Assembly: GCF_018398935.1 (NCBI RefSeq)
Contig: NZ_CP074694.1
Location: forward strand, 870,001 to 902,000
Reading direction: 5' to 3'
From: Telmatocola sphagniphila
Lineage (GTDB): Bacteria; Planctomycetota; Planctomycetia; Gemmatales; Gemmataceae
DNA: 32,000 bases
The notes under the pieces were generated by a model. That model was not told where the DNA came from and did no database searches. It worked only from the letters and a program-made list of their open reading frames with translations. The position numbers and the translations under genes are program-made. The first letter of the stretch is position 1. Each line of letters opens with the position of its first letter. Positions 5,245 through 24,335 of the stretch are shown piece after piece.

Positions 5245-5685
5245 TTACTCCAAAGGAACTTTCAGCATCTGCAGGTAGTAGGATTTCTTGTCGCCCGATT
5301 TCTCGGCGATGAAAGCTTCCGCCTGCTCTTTTTCCTTGTATTCGAACTTCTCCACCTGTTTGCTGGAATTGTCGAATACGGCCCAGATGGCTTTCATACG
5401 AACGATCTTGGCCGCGCGGGTGCGCTTCGGCTTAACGACGGCGACGACTTTCTTCTTGGCCTTCTTTTTCTTCTTAATTGGCTCGCCGTCTTCGTCGAGT
5501 TCCTCGGCTTCCTCGTCTCCACCGGAGTCCTCTTCGCTTTCGGACTCACCATCGCCCTCGGCTTCGGCCTCGTCCTCTTCGCCCTCTTCCTCTTCCTCTT
5601 CAGTTTCTTCGGCTTCGGTTTCTTCCGTTTCCTCTTCGGAATCGGCTCGGTAATCCATACGATTGAGCGTGCGTTTGCGGCCCAT
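5245..5685 (-). CDS. Hypothetical protein with a poly-acidic tract, a poly-lysine tract and a small C-terminal globular domain
   Basis: I use the internal ATG at 5685 (MGRKRTLNRMDY...), which has AAGGA 7-8 nt upstream. The longer ORF start at 5772 would overlap the corA 3' end. The protein has about 60 residues of almost pure E/D/G/S/T, then KKKKKAKKK, then about 60 ordinary residues. Confidence 0.6.
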   Translation of the reverse strand: MGRKRTLNRMDYRADSEEETEETEAEETEEEEEEGEEDEAEAEGDGESESEEDSGGDEEAEELDEDGEPIKKKKKAKKKVVAVVKPKRTRAAKIVRMKAIWAVFDNSSKQVEKFEYKEKEQAEAFIAEKSGDKKSYYLQMLKVPLE

Positions 5686-5753
5686 AGTTGTCCTTTTCAA
5701 TTGACGATTTACTATCTCATTAGGATACGACTGTTCCCTTTCCGGACAAGGGT

Positions 5754-6785
5754 TTATAGCCAGCGACGCCATCGGAAGAAGATCAGGGAAATGATACCGC
5801 AGCCTCCCATGGCCAGTATCGAGAGCCAGAATCCGCCGGGATGTTCCTTGCCGGGAAGGACATCGAAGTTCATTCCGTAGATGCTGGCGATAAGCGTCAT
5901 AGGCAGAATGATCGTCGAGATCATGGTCAGCACTTTCATGATCGTATTCAGTTTGTTGGACACCGCCGCCAAGTGAGTTTGCATCAGATCCGAGATCATT
6001 TCCCGAGCGCCCTCAATCATTTCCGTGTAGCGGATGAGGTGGTCGTAGACGTTGCGGTAGTAGATCACTTCCTGGGGGCTGACCAGTTCGAATTCGTTGC
6101 GGGTCAGTCGAGCCAGAACCTCCCGTTCCAGAATCATGGTCTTGCGAAGAATGACAATGAACGATTTGTGCCGAAGCAATTTACGAAGTAGTGACGGCTG
6201 CGGTTGCTCCAGAATTTCTCGTTCCAGATCGTCCAGGCTTTCCAGTATTTCGTCGATCACCGGGGCACATTCATCCACCAGATCATCCAGCAGCCAGTGA
6301 TAGAGATAATCGGGTCCGCGATTGCCGATAGCCACTTCGTGCGATAGCCGGTTTTTCAGGTGATCGACACAAGATAACTTCGTGTAGTGATGAGTGATCA
6401 AGGCATTCGAGGTCAGAACGGCGCTGAATTGCAGGTAGGCGCGGTGGCGTTCCGTCGGTTGAATTTCATCGCCGCACTGATTGAGGTATTCCCGGTTCAG
6501 AGGATTCACAATCGCGAATAGATAATCGTCCCACTCCTCGACTTTCGGCAGATGCGGCCCCACCTCGGGCTCGCGGATCGGTTTCCGAATATCTTCGAGT
6601 ACTAACGCATGCACGGGTCGGACTTTTTCAAATATCCAGGCTTCCTCTTCGGGAGTCGGAGATTCCAGATCGATCCAGTAATCCGATTTCGATAGCTGGG
6701 GATCAAGGGAAAGATTCTTCACTTGCTCGGCGTCCAGCAGGCAGCACTTTTTGGAGTCTTTATCCCAGCGGTAGACTTGCAGCAT
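5754..6785 (-). CDS. corA: CorA-family magnesium/cobalt transporter
   Basis: 343 aa. The C-terminal region has two TM segments with the signature YGMNF (IYGMNFDVLPG) between them. The start lies only 21 nt downstream of the stop of the preceding 1169-aa gene. Confidence 0.85.
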   Translation of the reverse strand: MLQVYRWDKDSKKCCLLDAEQVKNLSLDPQLSKSDYWIDLESPTPEEEAWIFEKVRPVHALVLEDIRKPIREPEVGPHLPKVEEWDDYLFAIVNPLNREYLNQCGDEIQPTERHRAYLQFSAVLTSNALITHHYTKLSCVDHLKNRLSHEVAIGNRGPDYLYHWLLDDLVDECAPVIDEILESLDDLEREILEQPQPSLLRKLLRHKSFIVILRKTMILEREVLARLTRNEFELVSPQEVIYYRNVYDHLIRYTEMIEGAREMISDLMQTHLAAVSNKLNTIMKVLTMISTIILPMTLIASIYGMNFDVLPGKEHPGGFWLSILAMGGCGIISLIFFRWRRWL

Positions 6786-6806: not shown

Positions 6807-9800
6807 CTATTTGCCAGACCCCGGAGAGGTATTTGACGAACTGGAGAAACCTCGTTCCACCTGGGGCGTTTTCGTTTTGATGTTGTATTTGATGATGACG
6901 CCAATCAGGGTATTGGCCACATTTCCGGTTCCCTTGAATTGGATTAAACGCGCGGGATTGGATCCAGTGCCGATGAAGGTCAGCATGGTTTTCGATTCGT
7001 CATATTTCACGATTTCAGCGTTTGCATCGATATCATCGCCCAGAACGCGGACATCCCCTTCGGCATCCATGCGATGGAAGGTTTTCGTTTGCTTCAATTC
7101 GTCCAGCATTTCGACTGTCGAAATCTCGAGGGATTTTTTGCTGTCCATTTGAATCGATCCTGGCAGCATGGCTCCCTTTTCGATCTTCATCTCGTGATCT
7201 TTGGCGGGGACGTGAATCACGGTGGTCGGCCCCAGGAATTTAGCTCTCTGTTTGCCGAAAGTCTGCATCTGCTGTTCGAACTCAATCCAGGTGAGCTTCA
7301 TTTCCGGTTCGGTTTCGCCTTGCAGAGAATCCTTCTTTTTCGGTTGTTGTTGCGGCGGTTTATTCGGTCCGGAGGTACCATCGAGAAAATCGCTGCCCCC
7401 TTCTTTGAAAATTCGAATCTTTCCGGGCCCGTGGGCTTTGGTATTTCCGTAAGTCTGAGGGGGTGGGGCGTTCTTAACGGGGGCGGCAATCGGCTTACCG
7501 TTGTCCAGAACGTTTTCGTAGTCGAGCTCTTCGGCCACCAGACGTTGGTAGCTAATCAGTTTTTTATTTTCCCACTTTTCTTCGATAGCCAGCACCTGTG
7601 GGACATCATTCGGCTTGAGCGGATTCACTTCGCCCCGTTCGCACCGAACGCGATCGATTTTGGGATTCTCTTTGGGTGTGTTCGTTTTGTCGTTCGGTGT
7701 GGTGGTTCTGAAGTAAACCGGCCGGTCCAGATCGACTTGCATGATCGTGCTCAGCACCTTCGCGGATCCATCTTCCTGCTCGGCCTGTACGGCACCGATG
7801 AAACGAGCCCATTTGCCGGCGCCATCGAACTCCATGCTGTCTTTCCAGTAGATGAAAATGTTGGCATCTTTCTTGAGCTGTTCCCCTTGCATGGTGCTAC
7901 TGGTTTTCATTCGCAGGCCACCGCGTCCGATTACCTGGGCATGATTGTCGCGCTGATCGATCACGATTATTGGCCCGTTGAGCGAGAGTTCTTCTCGGTG
8001 CAACTCGGCCGGTTTGATCTGGGCCACGACATCATTTTCCGCCTTCAAGGTCAGAGTGTGAAGGTTCTCGCCGTGGTGTTGAAGCTCCAGAATGTGAGCG
8101 AGCATCAGCATGCCCCGTTCATTTTTTTTATCCGCAGGGGGGGCTTGTTCGACTTCGACGTTTCCGACGCAGATAGCTTTATCCAGTTCGTGCTTGCCAT
8201 CTTTGCGCAGCACCCAGGCATCCATGCGCTTGGCTTTGATAAAGATCGGTTCGTCTTTTTTCTCCTCGGGTTTGGGAGGAGCGTTCTTGTCGGCCGGGTT
8301 CGTGGCCGTTGTCGGACCGCTCGGCTTGCCGTTGAGTGTTGAACTCGGCGGCATCGGTTTCTGTAGATTCGGATTCGGACCAGGTCCGGGAGTAGGGATA
8401 TCTTTGATGTAAACGAAGAGTTGATCCGCATCGCGTAGGTTCATGTCGGGGGAGTTCATAAATACATGCTGATTGGCTTCCAGTCTGACGGGTCTGGGTT
8501 GCGATTTTGCAACCGTTTCGGTGCCGGTCACGGGTTTCAATGGAGTCGGCACAGTCGCGACCGGGGTCCCGTTCTGATCGTTATCTTTTAACCAGACCCG
8601 TATTTCTTCCCCCTTCAAACTTTGTTTGGCTTTGGTATCGATGAACGAGGCTTTGCCGGTAAAGCGAAGAAATTGCAGCTGTTGGTTATCTTCCACAATC
8701 CGCTCGAAATACATCCAGTCATTCCAGTTGGCATTCTGTACGTGGGAATGAGTGGTCGTATCAAATTCCCCCATACCGATCGTTCCGGGGCCACGGACGC
8801 GAGCTTCTCGAATCCCATTGCTGCCGCCGGGATTTTTCGCCGGGGCGGCTTTAGGATCTTTAGCATCGTTGACGGGAGCGTTCGATTTCAAATAGAGTTC
8901 CAAGCCGCGCATCACATTGCCTTCCTTCACGGCGTAGATGCCCTCATCTTTTGCGCCCTTGAGAATGGTCGTCCTGGTAGCGGCCTCATAGACCAAGTCG
9001 TTTCCGGAGGCGTTCAGCTTTTCGGCGTCTGAGCTAATGGCAATCGCCAATCCCCAGGCATGCGCCCGTTTAATCTGCATCTGAGTTTCATCGCTGGGCG
9101 GAGTGGTTGGAGGCGGTAATGGAGCGGCCTGAGCGGTATTCGAATTGAAATTCGCCGGGGCTGGAGGTGTGTTCTTTACCCGTTCGAATTCAAGCAACAG
9201 ATGATCGCACTTCAGGATATCTAAATTTTCCGTTTTTGCTTTGCGCGTGACCCGCACGTAGTTGGGAAGATTGGGGTTCAGACTGGGAGCGTTATGGAAC
9301 ACGCCGATATCTTTGATCATATCGTAATGAAACGATCCTTGGGTCTCGATCTGGACTATTGAAAGATCGGAATCATCGGGCTTCTTGCCGGGTGCGGTAG
9401 GGGGAGCGTTTCCTCCGGAAAGAAAATTCGATTGGGAATCGGACCAGAAATTCATGGTCACGTCAGATAAAAGATCGATGTGATCGACCCCATTGATTTT
9501 TCGATCGGTATCTTCCTTCTTTTTAACTTTCGGGTCGGGTTCCGCGTCGGATTTCAGGTACATGCGCATACCTCGAGCCAGCAGAGTAGGAACTTTCCCC
9601 CCGACTTTAAACTTACCCGTCATGGAGCGATTATTTTGCCAGTCGTACAATTCCATAATCGCATCGGTCGTGACCATCGCGGGAACATCCGCCTTATGGT
9701 TGTCGATGTAAAACATCGGTCCGACGGTCATGATTTCAATGTCGTCATCGGGAGTTTGACTTTTCCGATTGTTGCGAATGTGAATCCGACCTTTTCGCGC

Positions 9801-10316
9801 ATCCTTCACGGGAATTTCGGGATCGGAAATGATGTCGGCTCGAATGACCTTCTTTCCCACCGCCTCGGCAATACTGTGCACCGGGGAATCGAAAGTGAGA
9901 ATACCCCGGTCGGAATGAAGCGTGGTTATCTCCTGCATGCCATCCGGGCCTTTGTTTTTGCCGAAGACGGCTATACTCAGCGGCGAAGCAAATAGACGGC
10001 CGTCATCGGAGAAGGCTTTTCCATTCGACTGTTTCTCCAGGGTGGCCGCGAGAACGACCCCCTTCGAACCCAGATTCATCTTCATCCCGTAATCGAGTTC
10101 GGCACAGTTAGCGCCAAACGCGACGATCAATTGCTCTTCGATGGGAGATCGAGTGGTGGGAGGAATGAACTCCTGCTGATCGGCGACCTGCGCGAATCTC
10201 TCCGGCAACGGCGGCAGGCCATCGACGCGACCCAGGAGTTGTGCGTAGACGAAGTATCCGAGGATACTCAGCGAGAGTCCCAGCACGGTCAGTAGTATTC
10301 GTCGTGGCGTGTGCAT
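6807..10316 (-). CDS. Large N-terminally membrane-anchored envelope protein; putative concatenated OstA/LptA-like modules
   Basis: 1169 aa. The N-terminus is RRILLTVLGLSLSILGYFVYAQLL, a single TM anchor. Recurrent segments resemble LptA/LptC beta-jellyroll sequence patterns, for example AEGDVRVLGDDIDANAEIVKYDESKTMLTFIGTG, ASGNDLVYEAATRTTILKG and ICVGNVEVEQ. These are separated by Pro-rich linkers. The gene follows kdsD-kdsC in the operon. The coding call is solid; the functional call is tentative. Confidence 0.8.
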   Translation of the reverse strand: MHTPRRILLTVLGLSLSILGYFVYAQLLGRVDGLPPLPERFAQVADQQEFIPPTTRSPIEEQLIVAFGANCAELDYGMKMNLGSKGVVLAATLEKQSNGKAFSDDGRLFASPLSIAVFGKNKGPDGMQEITTLHSDRGILTFDSPVHSIAEAVGKKVIRADIISDPEIPVKDARKGRIHIRNNRKSQTPDDDIEIMTVGPMFYIDNHKADVPAMVTTDAIMELYDWQNNRSMTGKFKVGGKVPTLLARGMRMYLKSDAEPDPKVKKKEDTDRKINGVDHIDLLSDVTMNFWSDSQSNFLSGGNAPPTAPGKKPDDSDLSIVQIETQGSFHYDMIKDIGVFHNAPSLNPNLPNYVRVTRKAKTENLDILKCDHLLLEFERVKNTPPAPANFNSNTAQAAPLPPPTTPPSDETQMQIKRAHAWGLAIAISSDAEKLNASGNDLVYEAATRTTILKGAKDEGIYAVKEGNVMRGLELYLKSNAPVNDAKDPKAAPAKNPGGSNGIREARVRGPGTIGMGEFDTTTHSHVQNANWNDWMYFERIVEDNQQLQFLRFTGKASFIDTKAKQSLKGEEIRVWLKDNDQNGTPVATVPTPLKPVTGTETVAKSQPRPVRLEANQHVFMNSPDMNLRDADQLFVYIKDIPTPGPGPNPNLQKPMPPSSTLNGKPSGPTTATNPADKNAPPKPEEKKDEPIFIKAKRMDAWVLRKDGKHELDKAICVGNVEVEQAPPADKKNERGMLMLAHILELQHHGENLHTLTLKAENDVVAQIKPAELHREELSLNGPIIVIDQRDNHAQVIGRGGLRMKTSSTMQGEQLKKDANIFIYWKDSMEFDGAGKWARFIGAVQAEQEDGSAKVLSTIMQVDLDRPVYFRTTTPNDKTNTPKENPKIDRVRCERGEVNPLKPNDVPQVLAIEEKWENKKLISYQRLVAEELDYENVLDNGKPIAAPVKNAPPPQTYGNTKAHGPGKIRIFKEGGSDFLDGTSGPNKPPQQQPKKKDSLQGETEPEMKLTWIEFEQQMQTFGKQRAKFLGPTTVIHVPAKDHEMKIEKGAMLPGSIQMDSKKSLEISTVEMLDELKQTKTFHRMDAEGDVRVLGDDIDANAEIVKYDESKTMLTFIGTGSNPARLIQFKGTGNVANTLIGVIIKYNIKTKTPQVERGFSSSSNTSPGSGK

Positions 10317-10357: not shown

Positions 10358-10927
10358 TCAATCCGACTTCTGGTGTTCCTGACCGCGAGCCGTCAGATCC
10401 GACTTTATCAGATTCGGCCGGAGGAGTAGATCCTGAGAGTCCTCGGAATTAGCAGTTCTCAGAGTAGTTTGTTTGCTCAGAAACAGACTCGGCTCTTGCG
10501 TCTCTCTCGTCACGAACAACGGCTTCAAATCGAAGATCGTGAGATAATTCCAGATCGCGTCTCCTTTATCGCCCAGAACTGTACCGGGAACGATCACCGC
10601 CGTTTCCCAGGAAGCAGAACCGAGAGTCTGCTCCGGAATGGTCCGGGCGGCCACTCGGAAGATTTCGGTCTTCTGCTGGATCGGCGCATCTTCATAGCGA
10701 GTTGGAATCAGCATAAAGGCGGAGGCGTACTTGGAATTCGGCTTGGGAACACTGCGGTCCGCGGGAAGGCCAGCCGGATCGGATGGGGTTTGATTTTCGA
10801 TCAGATAATCCAGCTTGTGGAGAATATGGAACTGTTGGATCCTCCTACCACTCTCTGCGGATCGTTCTTGCGCAGGGCATACAGTGAGCATCAGTAGAAG
10901 TGCCGATAGCAGAACTAGGTATTTCAT
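10358..10927 (-). CDS. Hypothetical secreted protein or possible lipoprotein
   Basis: 189 aa. The signal-like N-terminus is MKYLVLLSALLLMLTVCPAQ, where the Cys after LTV is a non-canonical lipobox. It starts 10 nt after the kdsC stop and ends 41 nt before the giant gene. I recognise no family motif. Confidence 0.65.
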   Translation of the reverse strand: MKYLVLLSALLLMLTVCPAQERSAESGRRIQQFHILHKLDYLIENQTPSDPAGLPADRSVPKPNSKYASAFMLIPTRYEDAPIQQKTEIFRVAARTIPEQTLGSASWETAVIVPGTVLGDKGDAIWNYLTIFDLKPLFVTRETQEPSLFLSKQTTLRTANSEDSQDLLLRPNLIKSDLTARGQEHQKSD

Positions 10928-10937
10928 CCTCTATCCT

Positions 10938-11477
10938 CTAAACCTGGTTCGCGTAACGAAGTACCACTTCATTCCACCGACCCTGGGCTTTTAGTATCCA
11001 TTCGATCGTTTCGCGCACGGCTCCCCGTCCCCCAGGTTGCTGGGTCACATAGTCCGCCACCGCTCGCATTTCCTGCACGCCATCTGCTACCGTTACGGCG
11101 ATGCCGCAGCAATTCATCAGAGCCAACTCCGGTAAATCGTCGCCGATACAGCAAGATTCCTCGATTTTGAAATTCAACTCCTCGGAGAGTATTCGCAAAG
11201 CGGCCTGCTTATTTCCGACACCTTGCAGCACTTTCGCTACATCCGTTTCCTTGGCCCGGCGATCGACCAAAGGTGAACTGCGGCCGCTGATAATCACACT
11301 GCGGTATCCGAGGGAATGCCACCAGCGCAGTGCGATTCCGTCCCGGACATGGAAGGGACGCAGTTCCGTATTCTGATCGCTGTAGAAGATGCTGCCGTCG
11401 GTCAGAACGCCGTCAACGTCCAAAACGAGGACGTTGATGCGAGTCAAACGCTCGGTCAGTGGCGGTTTAGGATTCAT
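10938..11477 (-). CDS. kdsC: 3-deoxy-D-manno-octulosonate 8-phosphate phosphatase (HAD family, KdsC)
   Basis: HAD motif I is VLVLDVDGVLTDG, followed by RDG, SGR and GDDLPE motifs typical of KdsC. I chose the start at ATG 11477 (MNPKPP...), which forms an ATGA overlap with the kdsD stop. The longer ORF to 11621 would overlap kdsD by about 150 nt. Confidence 0.8.
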   Translation of the reverse strand: MNPKPPLTERLTRINVLVLDVDGVLTDGSIFYSDQNTELRPFHVRDGIALRWWHSLGYRSVIISGRSSPLVDRRAKETDVAKVLQGVGNKQAALRILSEELNFKIEESCCIGDDLPELALMNCCGIAVTVADGVQEMRAVADYVTQQPGGRGAVRETIEWILKAQGRWNEVVLRYANQV

Positions 11478-12526
11478 GCCGATTGACGCTCCCACAAGCG
11501 AACCTTCGGGGTCGCTTCCAAAGGATCGTGCAAGGGATCGACGCCGATCAAATCGGTGATATCCAACAAGCCGATCGGTCGACCGACCGCGTCGATCACC
11601 GGTAACTCGCTGATCTTGCAATCGCGGAAAATGCTAATGGCTTCCTGCACCTTGGCGGTGGCAAATATCGTTTTGGGGTTGGCCGTCATCACTTGAGCGA
11701 TTGGCAGATCGAAGGCATTATCCTCCCGGCGCTCGAACAGTTTGGCCAGATCGCTATCGGTGAAGATTCCCATTAACAAGCCGGTTTCATCAACCAGCAT
11801 GATCGCGCCGGTCCGGCGACCCGGGAGGCAGGATTCCGAAAAGACCTGGCGAACCGTATGACTTTGCGAGGCGATTCGGAGTTCCGTACCGCGACGCATG
11901 ACCGTATCGACAATGGCTAATTTCCGGCCAAGACTCCCGGCCGGATGGAAGCGAGCAAAATCTTCGGAAGTGAATGCCCGCAGTTCGACGAGCGAGAAGG
12001 CAAGGGCATCGCCCAGGGCCATCATTACCGTCGTACTGGTACTGGGTGCCAGATTCAGCGGGCAGGACTCGGCCAGTGAGCCGTAGATGATGGAGTGATC
12101 GGTCTGCTTGGCGAGTGTGCTGCGCGGATTGCCCGTCATACCAATGAGTTGATGAGCAATGCCTTTTAATGCGGGAAGCAATCGAAGAATCTCTTCGCTC
12201 TCCCCACTGTGGGACAGGATTAAAACGATGTCTTCTGGATGGACCATTCCCAGATCGCCGTGCATGGCCCGGGTGGCATCGAGAAGATAGGCGCGAGTGC
12301 CCGTGGAATTCAACGTGCCGACGATCTTCTGGGCTACATCGAAAGATTTGCCCACTCCCGTCACGCCCAGTCGGCCGCGACAGCCATAAATGGCCTGCAC
12401 CACCTGTTCGAAACCGGGATCGAGTTTTTCCGCGACCTGATTCAAGGCCTGCGCTTCGATGTGGAGAACCCGTTTCGCAACGTTCAGCGACAGCGGATGC
12501 CCATCCGAGGTTGCACGCAAAGTCAT
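11474..12526 (-). CDS. kdsD: Arabinose-5-phosphate isomerase (SIS domain plus tandem CBS domains, KdsD/KpsF family)
   Basis: 350 aa. SIS motifs are GRLGVTGVGKS and ILSHSGESEE. The C-terminal CBS pair includes GAIMLVDETGLLMGIFTDSDL and LPVIDAVGRPIGLLDITDL. Confidence 0.85.
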   Translation of the reverse strand: MTLRATSDGHPLSLNVAKRVLHIEAQALNQVAEKLDPGFEQVVQAIYGCRGRLGVTGVGKSFDVAQKIVGTLNSTGTRAYLLDATRAMHGDLGMVHPEDIVLILSHSGESEEILRLLPALKGIAHQLIGMTGNPRSTLAKQTDHSIIYGSLAESCPLNLAPSTSTTVMMALGDALAFSLVELRAFTSEDFARFHPAGSLGRKLAIVDTVMRRGTELRIASQSHTVRQVFSESCLPGRRTGAIMLVDETGLLMGIFTDSDLAKLFERREDNAFDLPIAQVMTANPKTIFATAKVQEAISIFRDCKISELPVIDAVGRPIGLLDITDLIGVDPLHDPLEATPKVRLWERQSA

Positions 12527-12598: not shown

Positions 12599-12634
12599 AA
12601 AAAAAAACAACACCGGCTTACGTCCGGTGTTGTT
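12599..12634 (-). terminator. Intrinsic terminator of the 12660..13388 gene
   Basis: A perfect 11-bp stem (AACAACACCGG / CCGGTGTTGTT) with a 7-nt loop. On the minus strand it is followed by a run of at least 7 T (A-run 12599-12607 on the plus strand). Confidence 0.75.
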
Positions 12635-12659: not shown

Positions 12660-13388
12660 TTACATTTCGCAGAGCGAAAGATAAAGCTGAGCCAAGTGTT
12701 TCCAGCCCGATTGAGCGGGAAGACCTGCTACGGCTTCCTGAAGATCCTTGCGGGCCGATTCACGTTCGCCGAGGAAGATCTTGGCCATACCGCGATTCAG
12801 GCAGATGACCGGATTCGAAGGCTGAATCTTCCAAACTCGGAGGGCCTCGGCATGTTCGCCTCGCATCCAAAGAGTCGAAGCCGCTTCATTTCCGCGGACC
12901 CAGGTTTCCAGACCCTGGCAGCGATTGAGCAATTCCTGAGCCAGATCGAAAGCACCGGCCAGTCGGGCCACACCAACCGCTAACAGGATTTCTTCGCCGG
13001 TCTTCTTGTTTAATTTTTCCTGATTCAAGTTATTCAGAACGCAATCGGCCACCTTAGGAGTCGATTTGATCTGAACCGTTTTGAGCAGACGGGGAATATC
13101 GCTCACCTGTTGAGGATAATTTCCGATCGCACAGGGCAAAGCCACGATCATGCTGTCCAGAAAAGCGTAGCTGGACCATTCATTCGAGAGGGCTGCAGCG
13201 GCTTTGTTCTGGCCGTACAATTTGGCGAGGGTTTGAACCTCATTCCAGGCCGTGACGGGATCGACTTTGACGCCGGCGGAAGAATCGTAAGGTTCAACTA
13301 GGCCGAAGTTTGCATCGAATTCGGTATCGCAGACAAACGAATCCAGAACTCGGTTCATCAATTCTTCGATATTTGGAAGCGTAGTCAT
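12660..13388 (-). CDS. Hypothetical protein (helical, TPR-like C-terminal part)
   Basis: 242-aa ORF with its own terminator and a GGAGA Shine-Dalgarno 7 nt upstream of the ATG. I recognise no family signature. Confidence 0.65.
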   Translation of the reverse strand: MTTLPNIEELMNRVLDSFVCDTEFDANFGLVEPYDSSAGVKVDPVTAWNEVQTLAKLYGQNKAAAALSNEWSSYAFLDSMIVALPCAIGNYPQQVSDIPRLLKTVQIKSTPKVADCVLNNLNQEKLNKKTGEEILLAVGVARLAGAFDLAQELLNRCQGLETWVRGNEAASTLWMRGEHAEALRVWKIQPSNPVICLNRGMAKIFLGERESARKDLQEAVAGLPAQSGWKHLAQLYLSLCEM

Positions 13389-18243: not shown

Positions 18244-18429
18244 ATGTTCTGAAAAGATACCTGTCTTTGGGCGAAAGGACAAGAGACGAAATGAACGGGT
18301 TCGCAGTTTTCTCCGTAATGACTGGATAACACTTTAATTTCCTTCCGTCCCTTGTTTCAGACCATGGGGCAGATAGAAAAGTTAAACCGAGAAAGACTAG
18401 TGAAATTTAGAATATTTGGAGGATTCAGC

Positions 18430-19482
18430 GTGTTGAAACTGCGATTGGCCTCTTTGCTTGGGCTGATGCTTCTGTTCGGGGTTACCTTCTCGCAAGCTCA
18501 AGAAGCCAAAAAAGACGCTGCGAAGAAGGACCCACCCAAAGTCGAGCCTAAAGCCGAACCCAAAGCGGAAGCCAAGGCGCCCACCCCTTCGGCCGATGGG
18601 AAAGTGGACTTCACCTGGAAACTGGAAAAAGACAAGGTTTTCTACCAATCCACCACCACTTCCACGACCCAGAGCATCAAAGTGATGGGCATGGATGTGA
18701 ACCAGACTCAGGAACAGGTTTTCTACTTCAAATGGCAGCCATTGAAGGAAGAAGGCAAAAAGTGGACGATCAAGCAGACTATCGAAGGTCTGAAGATGAA
18801 GATCGATCTGGCGGGTAATCCGATCGCCTTCGACTCCGAAACTTCTGCTCCCGCCGGCTCCCAGACCCAGCTCTCCGACTTCTTCAAATCCTTGAAAAAC
18901 AGCGAGTTTGTGCTGACGCTCAACGAAAAGATGAAAGTGGAAAAGGTAGAAGGTCGCGAAGAGTTTCTGAAGAAGCTGGGCCAGGCTAATGCTCAGATGG
19001 AAGCTCTTTTGAAAACCATTCTGACTGAAGATGCCATGAAGCAGGTGACCGATCCTACCTTTGGCTTCATTCCGCCGGAACCCAAGAAGATTGGCGAAAG
19101 CTGGAAGGTCACTACGACCCTCAATCTGGGACCGATTGGGACTTACGACAACACCTCTACCTACACCTACAAGGCCAAGGAATCCGACGAAAGACATATC
19201 ATTGAAGTGGTTTCCGAAGTGACCTACAAGGCTCCGACCGATAATAGCGCCGGCCTGCCTTTCAAGATCAAATCGGCCGACCTGAAGACCAAAGATAAGA
19301 CTCCTGGTCAGATCGTTTACAACGCCAAAGCCGGCCGTGTGGACGAAGCTCGCATGGTTCTGAAAATTACGGGCAGCATGAAGATTGAAATCGGCGGTAA
19401 CGAGACCCCGGTGGAACTCAATCAGGATCAGACCACTGTCGTTAAGATTTCCGACAAGAGCTTTGTGACTGAAAAGAAGTAA
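18430..19482 (+). CDS. Hypothetical secreted protein
   Basis: I chose the GTG start at 18430, which is preceded by GGAGGA with 6-nt spacing. The signal peptide is LKLRLASLLGLMLLFGVTFSQAQE, followed by a K/P/A/E-rich linker (KVEPKAEPKAEAKAP) and a beta-rich body. I recognise no family. Confidence 0.7.
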   Translation: MLKLRLASLLGLMLLFGVTFSQAQEAKKDAAKKDPPKVEPKAEPKAEAKAPTPSADGKVDFTWKLEKDKVFYQSTTTSTTQSIKVMGMDVNQTQEQVFYFKWQPLKEEGKKWTIKQTIEGLKMKIDLAGNPIAFDSETSAPAGSQTQLSDFFKSLKNSEFVLTLNEKMKVEKVEGREEFLKKLGQANAQMEALLKTILTEDAMKQVTDPTFGFIPPEPKKIGESWKVTTTLNLGPIGTYDNTSTYTYKAKESDERHIIEVVSEVTYKAPTDNSAGLPFKIKSADLKTKDKTPGQIVYNAKAGRVDEARMVLKITGSMKIEIGGNETPVELNQDQTTVVKISDKSFVTEKK

Positions 19483-19564: not shown

Positions 19565-20440
19565 ATGCGATATGCAATAATCGGCTCGGCCGGGCAACTT
19601 GGGACAGCGCTTCAAAAATTACTCGGGAATCAGGCCATTCCCTTGACGCGGGCCGATTTTGACGCTATCGACGCGGCTTCCCTGCGACGCAAATTGACCG
19701 AACTTCAGCCTACTCATCTGATCAATTGCTCTGCCTACAATTTCGTGGATAAAGCGGAACAGGAACCTGAAGTAGCCTTCCGGTCCAACGCCTGGGCCGT
19801 ACGCGATATGGCCACGATTTGCTCGGAATTGAGCGCAAAATTCGTCCATGTCAGTACCGATTACGTGTTCGGTTTAGACACTACCCGAACGATTCCTTTT
19901 CGAGAGACAGACGCTCCTGGGCCTGTGAGCGTTTATGGGGTTAGCAAATTGACCGGGGAGTATTTCGCGCAGACTTACTCCGCGAATCACCTGGTTATTC
20001 GCACCTGTGGACTCTATGGCGTTCGCCAGGTGCAAAGTGGCAAGGGCACGAACTTCGTGGATACCATGCGGAATCTGGCCCGGGCCGGTAAGGCCTTAAA
20101 AGTGATTAACGATCAGCACTGCACTCCGAGTTTCGTGGAGCATGTCGCCCAGGCCTTGGTGGAGATGCTCCACAACGACTTAAAGGGGCTTTATCACGTC
20201 ACTAACAGTGGCCAGACAAACTGGTATGAATTTGCGAAGACGATTTTCGAACTCAGCGGTATCCAGGCCAATCTCAGCCCCACAACCGCGGCTGAATATG
20301 CCAATCAATTTCCTATCGAAAAACGGCCCGCCCGAAGGCCGGGATATTCCGTGCTCTCCTGCGATAAGCTTCTCGCTGGAAATGTTAAGCAACTTCCGGA
20401 CTGGCGGGCAGGTCTGGCCGATTATCTGAAATCCGTCTAA
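19565..20440 (+). CDS. rfbD: dTDP-4-dehydrorhamnose reductase
   Basis: 291 aa. The N-terminal Rossmann motif is IIGSAGQLG. STDYVF and YGVSKLTGE (YxxxK) are typical of the RmlD/RfbD family. Confidence 0.85.
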   Translation: MRYAIIGSAGQLGTALQKLLGNQAIPLTRADFDAIDAASLRRKLTELQPTHLINCSAYNFVDKAEQEPEVAFRSNAWAVRDMATICSELSAKFVHVSTDYVFGLDTTRTIPFRETDAPGPVSVYGVSKLTGEYFAQTYSANHLVIRTCGLYGVRQVQSGKGTNFVDTMRNLARAGKALKVINDQHCTPSFVEHVAQALVEMLHNDLKGLYHVTNSGQTNWYEFAKTIFELSGIQANLSPTTAAEYANQFPIEKRPARRPGYSVLSCDKLLAGNVKQLPDWRAGLADYLKSV

Positions 20441-23144: not shown

Positions 23145-23794
23145 TTCGTCTGTTCCGAGACGCTCTTCCACCATTGCTTCACGGTGTATTCGGCCGACTT
23201 GCGTAATGGCTCGAAGGATTCCTTGGTCGATTCTCCCATGCTGGTGAAAGCTACCGAAATCGGTTGCCAGGATGGAATCGCATCCGAAGCCCGAAAAGAC
23301 TTGATTTTCAACAGTTTGGAAGGGATCTCCAAGGGGGTTTCCGCGGCACGCAAAGTCGCGGTAGCAACATCGTTGCCGATTGTCTCCCATTGCTTCAGGG
23401 CGGATTTCAGATCTTCGGCCTTGGTGTTTGGAGGCTTAATCGAGACGTCATTGTTCCTGGCCGGTCGTTCCCGCAGATAGACGGCGATAGCGAGAGCCGC
23501 GGCCACGGCGAAAGCACCGAATGTCATCCTCTGAACCCGAATCCAGCGATCCCTTTGCAATCGAGTCATTACGAAAGCGGAAGTCACACGCTTTGGTGGG
23601 CGCGGGGTCGATTGGTATTCTGGCAGTCGCGACAAAATCGCGAAGCCCTTCTGAATCGATTGACAGCGATCGCAGGACTCCAGGTGGTCTTTCGAAAGGG
23701 CCGAAAGCTCCCGGGCATCGCCATCCAGAATGAGATTCCATTCCTGGTCGAAGGCGGAGCAAGCCGTTGGGTTTTTGTTAAATTCGGACATCAT
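23141..23794 (-). CDS. Anti-sigma factor (zf-HC2-type, single-pass membrane protein)
   Basis: The HLESCDRC motif (H-x3-C-x2-C) sits near the N-terminus and the central TM helix is FGAFAVAAALAIAVYL. The gene overlaps the 3' end of the ECF sigma gene by 17 nt. Confidence 0.7.
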   Translation of the reverse strand: MMSEFNKNPTACSAFDQEWNLILDGDARELSALSKDHLESCDRCQSIQKGFAILSRLPEYQSTPRPPKRVTSAFVMTRLQRDRWIRVQRMTFGAFAVAAALAIAVYLRERPARNNDVSIKPPNTKAEDLKSALKQWETIGNDVATATLRAAETPLEIPSKLLKIKSFRASDAIPSWQPISVAFTSMGESTKESFEPLRKSAEYTVKQWWKSVSEQTN

Positions 23795-24335
23795 TTTGAG
23801 ATATTTCCAGCATTCCGCGGGATCGCAGAGTTTCCAACACTTCTAATCGGGCACGGTGCAACCAGGTCTTAATCGTTCCAACAGGCTTGCCAATGGCCTC
23901 TGAAATGGAGAGGTAATCGAGAGCTTCCTCGTGGTAAAGAATGAAAACCTGACGGTAATCTTCTCGGAGAAGTTTCACAGCCCGGGAGATTTCTCTCGCC
24001 ATTTCATTCGATTCTTCGCCAGTTTTCCGGTCTGCCAATTCACTATCGCTTTCCAACTGAACGGTCGATTTTCGCCGGCTCGAAAGCCAGGTGCGACAGC
24101 GGTTGGCTGTAACCTGAAGAATCCAGGGTTTCAGCGGGCGGCTGGAATCCCATCGGTGCAAATAGCGGAAAATCCTCAGGAACGATTCCTGATAGATATC
24201 TTCGGCATCCGAACGATTGCCCAGCATCCTAAAACAGAGGCGGAAAACATCATCGTGAAATCGTTGGATGAAATCGGTGAACGCCTGAGACTCTTTACGC
24301 AGGCAGGCCGCGACCAGTGTCTCTTCGCTTTGCAC
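23778..24335 (-). CDS. RNA polymerase ECF-type sigma factor
   Basis: 185 aa. Region 2 reads DAEDIYQESFLRIF...PWILQVTANRCRTW. The region 4 HTH reads LSISEAIGKPVGTIKTWLHRAR. It uses a GTG start. Confidence 0.9.
   Translation of the reverse strand: MQSEETLVAACLRKESQAFTDFIQRFHDDVFRLCFRMLGNRSDAEDIYQESFLRIFRYLHRWDSSRPLKPWILQVTANRCRTWLSSRRKSTVQLESDSELADRKTGEESNEMAREISRAVKLLREDYRQVFILYHEEALDYLSISEAIGKPVGTIKTWLHRARLEVLETLRSRGMLEISQNDVRI

Follow-up and report, generated by a model that had tools for sequence, protein, structure and literature searches.

A multi-module OstA-type protein encoded behind kdsD and kdsC in Telmatocola sphagniphila as a probable single-chain lipopolysaccharide bridge

Lipopolysaccharide (LPS) crosses the periplasm along a bridge in which LptC, LptA and LptD's N-terminal part stack their OstA-type β-jellyrolls, LptC being anchored by a transmembrane helix. 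In E. coli and many proteobacteria the corresponding genes follow the cluster order kdsD-kdsC-lptC-lptA-lptB. The OstA fold consists of 16 antiparallel strands that form a V-shaped groove and stack head to tail; the number of LptA molecules in the bridge in vivo and the response of the bridge to the width of the periplasm are unresolved questions (PMC6164715). Planctomycetes have LPS, and LptD has been reported from every planctomycete genome that had been published at the time (PMC3422733); their periplasm can be greatly enlarged (PMC5394234). Here we analyse a 32,000-nucleotide stretch of the planctomycete Telmatocola sphagniphila, a member of the Gemmataceae (contig NZ_CP074694.1, positions 870,001 to 902,000, assembly GCF_018398935.1), hereafter the window, and in it the gene KIH39_03750, which encodes a giant protein of 1169 amino acids downstream of a kdsD-kdsC region. 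Based on profile searches, structure prediction and conserved gene order, the giant protein is probably a single-chain LPS bridge of LptC/LptA-like type, anchored in the inner membrane and fixed in its number of modules.

The translated gene is identical in sequence to the NCBI entry 'hypothetical protein KIH39_03750' of T. sphagniphila. Following an N-terminal helix the chain divides into four predicted β-rich blocks, which are separated by linkers predicted to be disordered with a low predicted local distance difference test (pLDDT) score. The gene and the parts of its product are as follows, in window coordinates:

6807..10316, minus strand: giant gene KIH39_03750, ATG start, 1169 amino acids (aa), taken from the open reading frame (ORF) list
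10233..10307, minus strand: hydrophobic helix, aa 4-28; the sole hydrophobic window, helical in the AlphaFold2 (AF2) model
10203..10235, minus strand: juxtamembrane motif LGxxDGLPPLP, aa 28-38; nearly invariant across the family
9165..10091, minus strand: block A, aa 76-384; 18 predicted strands, candidate LptC-equivalent module
9090..9164, minus strand: Pro/Thr-rich disordered linker, aa 385-409; pLDDT <50 at 388-410, alignment occupancy 0.29, variable length
8391..9089, minus strand: block B, aa 410-642; 14 strands, OstA/LptA-like module
8256..8390, minus strand: Pro-rich disordered linker, aa 643-687; pLDDT <50 at 647-678, up to 33% Pro per 30-aa window
7392..8255, minus strand: block C, aa 688-975; 20 strands, one or more OstA-like modules
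7311..7391, minus strand: Pro/Lys/Gln-rich disordered linker, aa 976-1002; pLDDT <50 at 975-1001
6831..7310, minus strand: block D, aa 1003-1162; 12 strands, closest to LptA among the four blocks, with an LptA-like C-terminal edge

We used family alignments of 6, 43 (a diverse subset) and 147 sequences, of which the 43-sequence set served for structure prediction and for the Pfam scans. The whole giant protein matches a single Pfam family, LptD_N/OstA (PF03968), with 24.3 bits compared to a cut-off of 20.4. Several weak stretches add up to this score, the best of which covers aa 1075-1148, and with the query cut into segments LptD_N is matched by aa 412-474 (E 0.0044) and by aa 1073-1148 (E 0.087). 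Among the 43 diverse homologues, 39 match PF03968, the best with an E-value of 2.1e-13, and no other Pfam family is found. For greater sensitivity the family consensus was emitted and scanned block by block against Pfam and NCBIfam. Consensus block B aligns with LptD_N over profile positions 9-106 of 113 (21.0 bits, E 3.9e-4) and with the LptA profile TIGR03002 (E 2.7e-4), and consensus block C with LptD_N (24.0 bits, E 4.9e-5) and with positions 24-149 of the LptD profile NF002997, i.e. its N-terminal jellyroll (E 0.0043). The strongest similarity is found for consensus block D, which matches LptD_N with 41.9 bits (E 1.3e-10) and TIGR03002 over positions 36-129 of 142 (E 9.6e-11), besides a weak match to an LptC tail. 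Blocks B, C and D each match LptA/LptD_N profiles independently. The original prediction, which had been made from the sequence before any of these searches, had read an OstA-like strand rhythm in several stretches of the protein, and these fall into the profile-matching blocks (block B, aa 431-454 and 610-637; block C, aa 698-724; block D, aa 1055-1118).

This assignment is further supported by direct comparison with LptA. When searched against 177,635 PDB sequences, the 147-sequence profile retrieves LptA chains only, with weak scores (E 0.02-0.5); the 6-sequence profile gave noise only, with snake-venom lectins at E ~0.2. Residues 104-151 of E. coli LptA align with aa 1095-1152 with an hhalign probability of 58%, and the E. 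coli LptA profile reaches 9% with aa 423-577. This LptA profile, for which 120 matches were listed, all from Enterobacteriaceae (effective number of sequences, Neff, 1.4), added little. Within the giant protein, hhalign aligns blocks B and C colinearly across 180 columns (67%, E 5e-5), a value of 89% is reached by the sub-block pair 500-580 and 780-872, and the similarity between blocks A and C is weak (9-15%).

The predicted structure fits a chain of jellyrolls. An AF2 model computed from six sequences has a pLDDT of 64; with 43 sequences the pLDDT is 78.9, the predicted template modelling score (pTM) 0.61, and 853 residues reach a pLDDT of at least 70. In the 43-sequence model a helix at 4-28 and a second, short one at 58-67 precede 64 β-strands, with essentially no further helices. 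The strands are split 18, 14, 20 and 12 over the four blocks, and additional disordered loops are predicted inside the blocks. The total of 64 corresponds to 4 x 16, 16 being the number of strands in an OstA jellyroll (PMC6164715). In Foldseek searches of the PDB the model matches LptA with a probability of 1.0 and a template modelling (TM) score of 0.60-0.68 normalised to LptA; LptH is also matched, and LptC chains, both from LptB2FGC complexes and from crystals, are found with a probability of ~1.0. LptD is matched with a probability of 0.92-0.99, a TM score of 0.14-0.21 normalised to LptD and a root-mean-square deviation (rmsd) of ~28-43 Å, which is consistent with a match to the N-terminal jellyroll only. 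These matches hold at the level of the whole model and are not assigned to single modules; an earlier model gave similar ones. The confident fold matches are all Lpt proteins (LptA, LptC, LptH and the LptD jellyroll), and the profile and fold searches both place the giant protein in the OstA/LptD_N superfamily. As block A shows no OstA signal at the level of sequence, the sequence supports a count of three modules and the predicted structure one of about four, so that the four or five modules first proposed stand only in part.

We also considered an LptD-like barrel, which is excluded by the LptD TM scores of 0.14-0.21 and by the LptA-like C-terminal module. The giant protein ends in ...SPGSGK, with no terminal aromatic residue of the kind looked for in the 26-strand outer-membrane β-barrel of LptD.

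The stretch between aa 6 and 29 is the only hydrophobic segment of the giant protein (19-aa Kyte-Doolittle window >1.6), and with the modelled helix at 4-28 it bears out the single N-terminal helix of the original prediction. Tyr24 and Gly29 are nearly invariant in 147 sequences. In the adjoining motif Gly29, Asp32, Gly33, Leu34, Pro35, Leu37 and Pro38 are at least 90% conserved in the same alignment and invariant in the 6-sequence alignment, a pattern suggestive of a conserved point of contact at the membrane surface. The helix is probably a signal-anchor like the transmembrane helix of LptC. Its length and conservation argue for an anchor over a cleaved signal peptide, and we infer anchoring rather than cleavage.

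Conservation extends to the architecture of the whole chain. A word-indexed search returned five relatives only, with 27-36% identity and 1111-1267 aa, whereas an exhaustive profile search found 3227 cluster representatives at E<=1e-3, 967 of them at E<=1e-30. The best 150 profile matches are mostly 1000-1300 aa long and align over essentially the whole profile. In the 147-sequence alignment occupancy is 0.8-1.0 in the structured blocks and 0.3-0.6 in the Pro-rich loops. Differences in length between orthologues are located in the loops, and the number of blocks is constant; the comparison of module number across orthologues, suggested at the outset, gave the same number in 146 full-length homologues with 29-43% identity. 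The automated annotation of IMG gives the name 'lipopolysaccharide export system protein LptA' to some family members and the name 'hypothetical protein' to others. Most family members carry Cys at alignment positions 856 and 892, a pair that is likely to form a periplasmic disulfide in the family. The Telmatocola protein has Ser at 856 (window 7749-7751) and retains Cys892; its cysteines are at 71, 370, 716 and 892.

The gene order upstream of the giant gene links it to the synthesis of 3-deoxy-D-manno-octulosonic acid (Kdo), and comprises the following genes in Telmatocola:

11474..12526, minus strand: kdsD, arabinose-5-phosphate isomerase; SIS and CBS domains, matching KpsF/GutQ TIGR00393 (1.2e-70) and KdsD NF008141 (7.6e-70)
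10938..11477, minus strand: kdsC, Kdo-8-phosphate phosphatase; TIGR01670 (6.2e-42)
10358..10927, minus strand: 189-aa ORF with the signal-peptide-like N-terminus MKYLVLLSALLLMLTVC

The ATG of kdsC (11477) shares bases with the TGA stop of kdsD in an ATGA overlap. Ten nucleotides (10 nt) separate the kdsC stop from the start of the 189-aa ORF, and 41 nt lie between the stop of this ORF and the ATG of the giant gene, a layout that reproduces the one originally described. On two homologue-bearing contigs kdsD (SIS+CBS), kdsC (HAD) and the giant gene are adjacent on one strand. A scan of one genome per GTDB species yielded 38 loci with the giant gene, in Gemmata, Zavarzinella, Frigoriglobus, Limnoglobus, other Gemmataceae, metagenome-assembled genomes (MAGs) of Gemmatales and one MAG labelled Singulisphaera; the scan was seeded with the 6-sequence alignment, so that the recovered loci are biased towards Gemmataceae. 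In tblastn comparisons with the window proteins the giant gene is matched at related loci with 25-35% identity, and kdsD-kdsC lie directly 5' of it, on the same strand and with short gaps, in all of the ~33 loci with enough upstream DNA. The likeness to the E. coli-type cluster thus holds for the position of the giant gene after kdsD-kdsC and ends on its other side, where corA and not lptB follows.

The same kdsD-kdsC-giant locus of Gemmataceae type, with 27-37% identity, is carried by MAGs titled 'Bacteroidales bacterium' or 'uncultured Alcaligenaceae bacterium' (loci L012, L017, L022 and L035). These bins are probably mislabelled or contaminated.

Taken as an LPS bridge, the giant protein would be held in the inner membrane by its single N-terminal helix, and its periplasmic part of ~1100 residues would form a chain of about four OstA/LptA-type β-jellyrolls joined by disordered Pro/Lys-rich loops. 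The helix and the first block would sit on the LptB2FG extractor in place of LptC. LPS would then move with its lipid A acyl chains in the hydrophobic V-groove that the stacked modules form, and at the outer membrane the LptA-like C-terminal edge of block D would pair with LptD's N-terminal jellyroll. One polypeptide with a set number of modules would in this way replace LptC together with the uncertain number of LptA monomers used in E. coli, and its gene is probably co-transcribed with the Kdo-synthesis genes kdsD-kdsC. We infer the continuous stacking of the modules, the docking to LptFG and LptD, the LPS cargo and the replacement of separate LptC and LptA. The module length can be put at ~4-6 nm, from our own estimate (eight strands per sheet x 4.8 Å) and from the 6 nm per LptA in a model of the Borrelia Lpt system (bioRxiv 10.1101/2022.12.21.521298). 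Four modules would accordingly measure ~15-25 nm, LptF/G and LptD not counted. The disordered linkers, which are kept in the family but vary in length, may give the chain flexibility. More tentatively, and with rather less confidence than in the bridge itself, we raise the possibility that LptC and LptA are missing as separate proteins from Gemmataceae, and probably from other Planctomycetota, the giant chain being their whole periplasmic LPS bridge.

Several observations weigh against the single-chain bridge. Block A gives no Pfam or NCBIfam match at E<=10, either with query segments or with the consensus, and E. coli LptC (its sequence checked against the PDB) reaches an hhalign probability below 1% with the family and with block A. 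The expectation that the first block would be LptC-like by sequence is hence not borne out. LptC sequences are strongly divergent, and a missing profile match is compatible with an LptC-like role of block A. The giant protein does not qualify as an LptA equivalog: TIGR03002 has a cut-off of 71.7 bits, compared to which the query scores 17.1 and the best consensus block 41.7. Most of the remaining block pairs stay below 30% hhalign probability; this weak internal repeat signal indicates modules that diverged anciently rather than recent duplications. Block A is presumed to have the jellyroll fold, and the groove is presumed to continue from one block to the next. With linkers of 25-45 residues the modules could instead be arranged as beads on a string and not as a rigid rod, and a signal peptide that is cleaved off (VYA followed by Q) could account for the N-terminal helix. 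Furthermore, lptB, lptF, lptG, lptD and lptE are missing from the 32-kb window, as is any other lpt gene, and from the flanking DNA of related loci (up to 10 kb), so the link between the giant protein and the Lpt machine consists of homology and of the kdsD-kdsC neighbourhood. The concatenated LptC-(LptA)n of the original prediction is supported in part: the OstA jellyrolls in at least three regions, the predicted fold, the LptC-like anchor, the synteny and the constant module number speak in its favour, and the LptC portion lacks a sequence signal in block A.

Three other explanations start from the same data. The giant protein could be an OstA-module conduit that spans the periplasm with a cargo other than LPS, i.e. 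phospholipids or lipoproteins, as an analogue of YhdP or TamB, with a separate LptC/LptA pair serving LPS. Its outline resembles that of YhdP and TamB, with one N-terminal anchor followed by ~1100 residues of continuous β-structure, lptB and lptFG are not adjacent to the giant gene, and Lpt-type machinery of Borrelia has been proposed as a lipoprotein carrier (bioRxiv 10.1101/2022.12.21.521298). However, no AsmA, AsmA_2, TamB or YhdP profile is matched significantly: the similarity of consensus block D to Pfam YhdP is sub-threshold, with 12.4 bits compared to a cut-off of 46. TamB and YhdP chains are absent from the top 50 PDB fold matches, and a weak Foldseek match of the first model to LPD-3 (E 7e-4, probability 0.38) is gone with the better model. 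As the invariant place right after the Kdo genes kdsD-kdsC also points to LPS, we regard a different cargo as unlikely. A soluble, secreted giant LptA that extends the bridge alongside a separate conventional LptC would account for the absence of LptC similarity in block A and for the name 'LptA' given to several members by IMG. The signal peptide of E. coli LptA is cleavable, and residues 23-26 offer a possible VYA-Q cleavage motif. Yet the hydrophobic stretch of ~23 residues is long for the core of a signal peptide, the helix and the LGxxDGLPPLP motif rank with the best-conserved portions of the family, an unusual property in a leader that is removed, and the giant gene holds the lptC position right after kdsC; we therefore consider a secreted protein rather improbable.

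A purely structural role is the least probable of these explanations and in our view very improbable. The giant protein would then be a spacer or tether, peptidoglycan-associated or adhesin-like, that reuses the β-jellyroll and transports no lipid. Its long Pro/Lys-rich disordered loops (89 Pro and 99 Lys) are reminiscent of the linkers of envelope tethers and cell-wall-binding proteins, and teneurin-like β-shell proteins lead the Foldseek list by E-value (probability 0.35-0.47). The teneurin alignments have a TM score of ~0.05 and an rmsd >40 Å, however, and such values indicate a generic long β-sheet, while every high-probability fold match and every profile match is an Lpt protein. Pfam and NCBIfam scans revealed no adhesin, immunoglobulin-like (Ig-like) or peptidoglycan-binding domain, adhesin and Ig-like structures are likewise missing from the Foldseek PDB matches, and the synteny with the Kdo genes argues in the same direction. 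An adhesin proper was also tried as a candidate and rejected, no supporting domain having been found. The anchored single-chain LPS bridge consequently remains the interpretation that we favour.

The 189-aa ORF between kdsC and the giant gene had been listed as a member of the cluster, and this did not hold up. Its product has no Pfam or NCBIfam match and a single homologue, with 95% identity, among 5.8 billion proteins, and tblastn gave zero matches to the ORF in 40 related loci. The ORF looks like an orphan of the Telmatocola lineage that was inserted into a conserved operon. Since it is an orphan without a family match, we rejected it as LptC or LptE, that is, as a conserved component. The ORF is preceded by a GAGGA-type ribosome-binding site, and its GC content at third codon positions (GC3) of 0.58 is coding-like. 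A Cys in the signal-peptide-like start (MKYLVLLSALLLMLTVC followed by PAQ) might represent a relaxed lipobox.

On the 5' side of kdsD the region contains one conspicuous element:

12606..12634, minus strand: terminator-like hairpin with an 11-bp stem (6 GC pairs) and TTTTTTT; consensus match only

The hairpin is located between a TPR-like gene (12660-13388) and kdsD. In a scan of the region for promoters and terminators the site counts were not above chance and only this 11-bp hairpin stood out. It probably marks the start of a kdsD-kdsC-orf189-giant transcription unit.

On the 3' side the next gene is corA (TIGR00383, 2.6e-63), 21 nt from the giant gene. In Telmatocola corA follows directly and a gene for an extracytoplasmic function (ECF)-type sigma factor is located elsewhere in the window (23778-24335); in two relatives (L001, 11502-13313, and L002, 11415-13276) the giant gene and corA are kept apart by an ECF sigma factor and two small ORFs, unannotated and on the opposite strand. 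The end of corA is overlapped by 19 nt by the gene for a 175-aa protein (5245-5772, minus strand), in which an extremely acidic Glu/Asp run is followed by a Lys-rich tract. The C-terminal part of this protein recurs with 48-59% identity just 3' of corA in other loci (L001, L002, L011, L030, L031 and L040).

Two further parts of the window are of note. At 69-530 on the plus strand an ORF of 153 aa corresponds to the C-terminal half of an AbiEii nucleotidyltransferase toxin of type IV toxin-antitoxin systems (PF08843, 7.5e-15); the profile match begins at position 114 of 238 and the ORF looks N-terminally truncated. At 18352-19482, also on the plus strand, the gene for a DUF6263 protein (PF19777, 9.6e-20) adjoins a gene for an RmlD-type dTDP-4-dehydrorhamnose reductase (19565-20440), and this area could be another envelope-polysaccharide-related neighbourhood.

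If the giant protein is indeed the whole periplasmic LPS bridge, the length and stoichiometry of this bridge would be genetically fixed and its equivalent of the LptA copy number could be read from the sequence. Its conserved, disordered Pro/Lys linkers could then serve as hinges and accommodate the variable and enlarged periplasm of planctomycetes. A natural, concatenated and anchored bridge of defined length would be an attractive object for structure determination and in-situ tomography. The giant protein would also add a missing piece to the picture of the planctomycete envelope, namely the periplasmic Lpt components: a full-text search of the literature, with subscription journals mostly outside its reach, found no description of planctomycete LptA or LptC or of a natural fused or multi-module LptC/LptA. 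For annotation, entries now called 'hypothetical' at NCBI, and 'LptA' or 'hypothetical' at IMG, would be affected.

Among the known systems LptA (E. coli YhbN; PF03968, TIGR03002) and its Pseudomonas counterpart LptH have the predicted β-jellyroll fold in common with the giant protein, and their profiles also recognise its blocks B, C and D. LptA, however, has ~185 aa and only one 16-strand module, loses its signal peptide by cleavage and oligomerises non-covalently, whereas the giant protein has 1169 aa, about four modules per chain, an apparent anchor and long disordered insertions, and lptB is not adjacent to its gene. With LptC (YrbK; PF06835, TIGR04409) it shares an N-terminal transmembrane helix followed by a jellyroll and a gene position after kdsC. 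It differs from LptC in that its N-terminal block gives no profile or hhalign match, in being about six times longer and, in Telmatocola, in the orphan ORF that separates its gene from kdsC. The AsmA-like proteins (YhdP, TamB, YdbH) and the eukaryotic LPD-3/BLTP1 resemble it in design, with one N-terminal anchor and one very long polypeptide whose hydrophobic β-groove can reach from one membrane to the other, but have another fold (β-taco, repeating β-groove) in place of the OstA jellyroll, and are thought to carry phospholipids and not LPS. Membership in the AsmA-like group (AsmA, TamB, YhdP) was rejected, as the query gives no profile match and no TamB or YhdP fold match. The giant protein converges in overall design on the AsmA-like and bridge-like lipid transfer proteins with a different fold. 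The label 'LptCA' is used in papers for what we take to be engineered LptC-LptA fusion constructs; such fusions, which serve structural and inhibitor studies, are made in the laboratory and have two modules, whereas the giant protein is natural and conserved, with about four modules and its native anchor.

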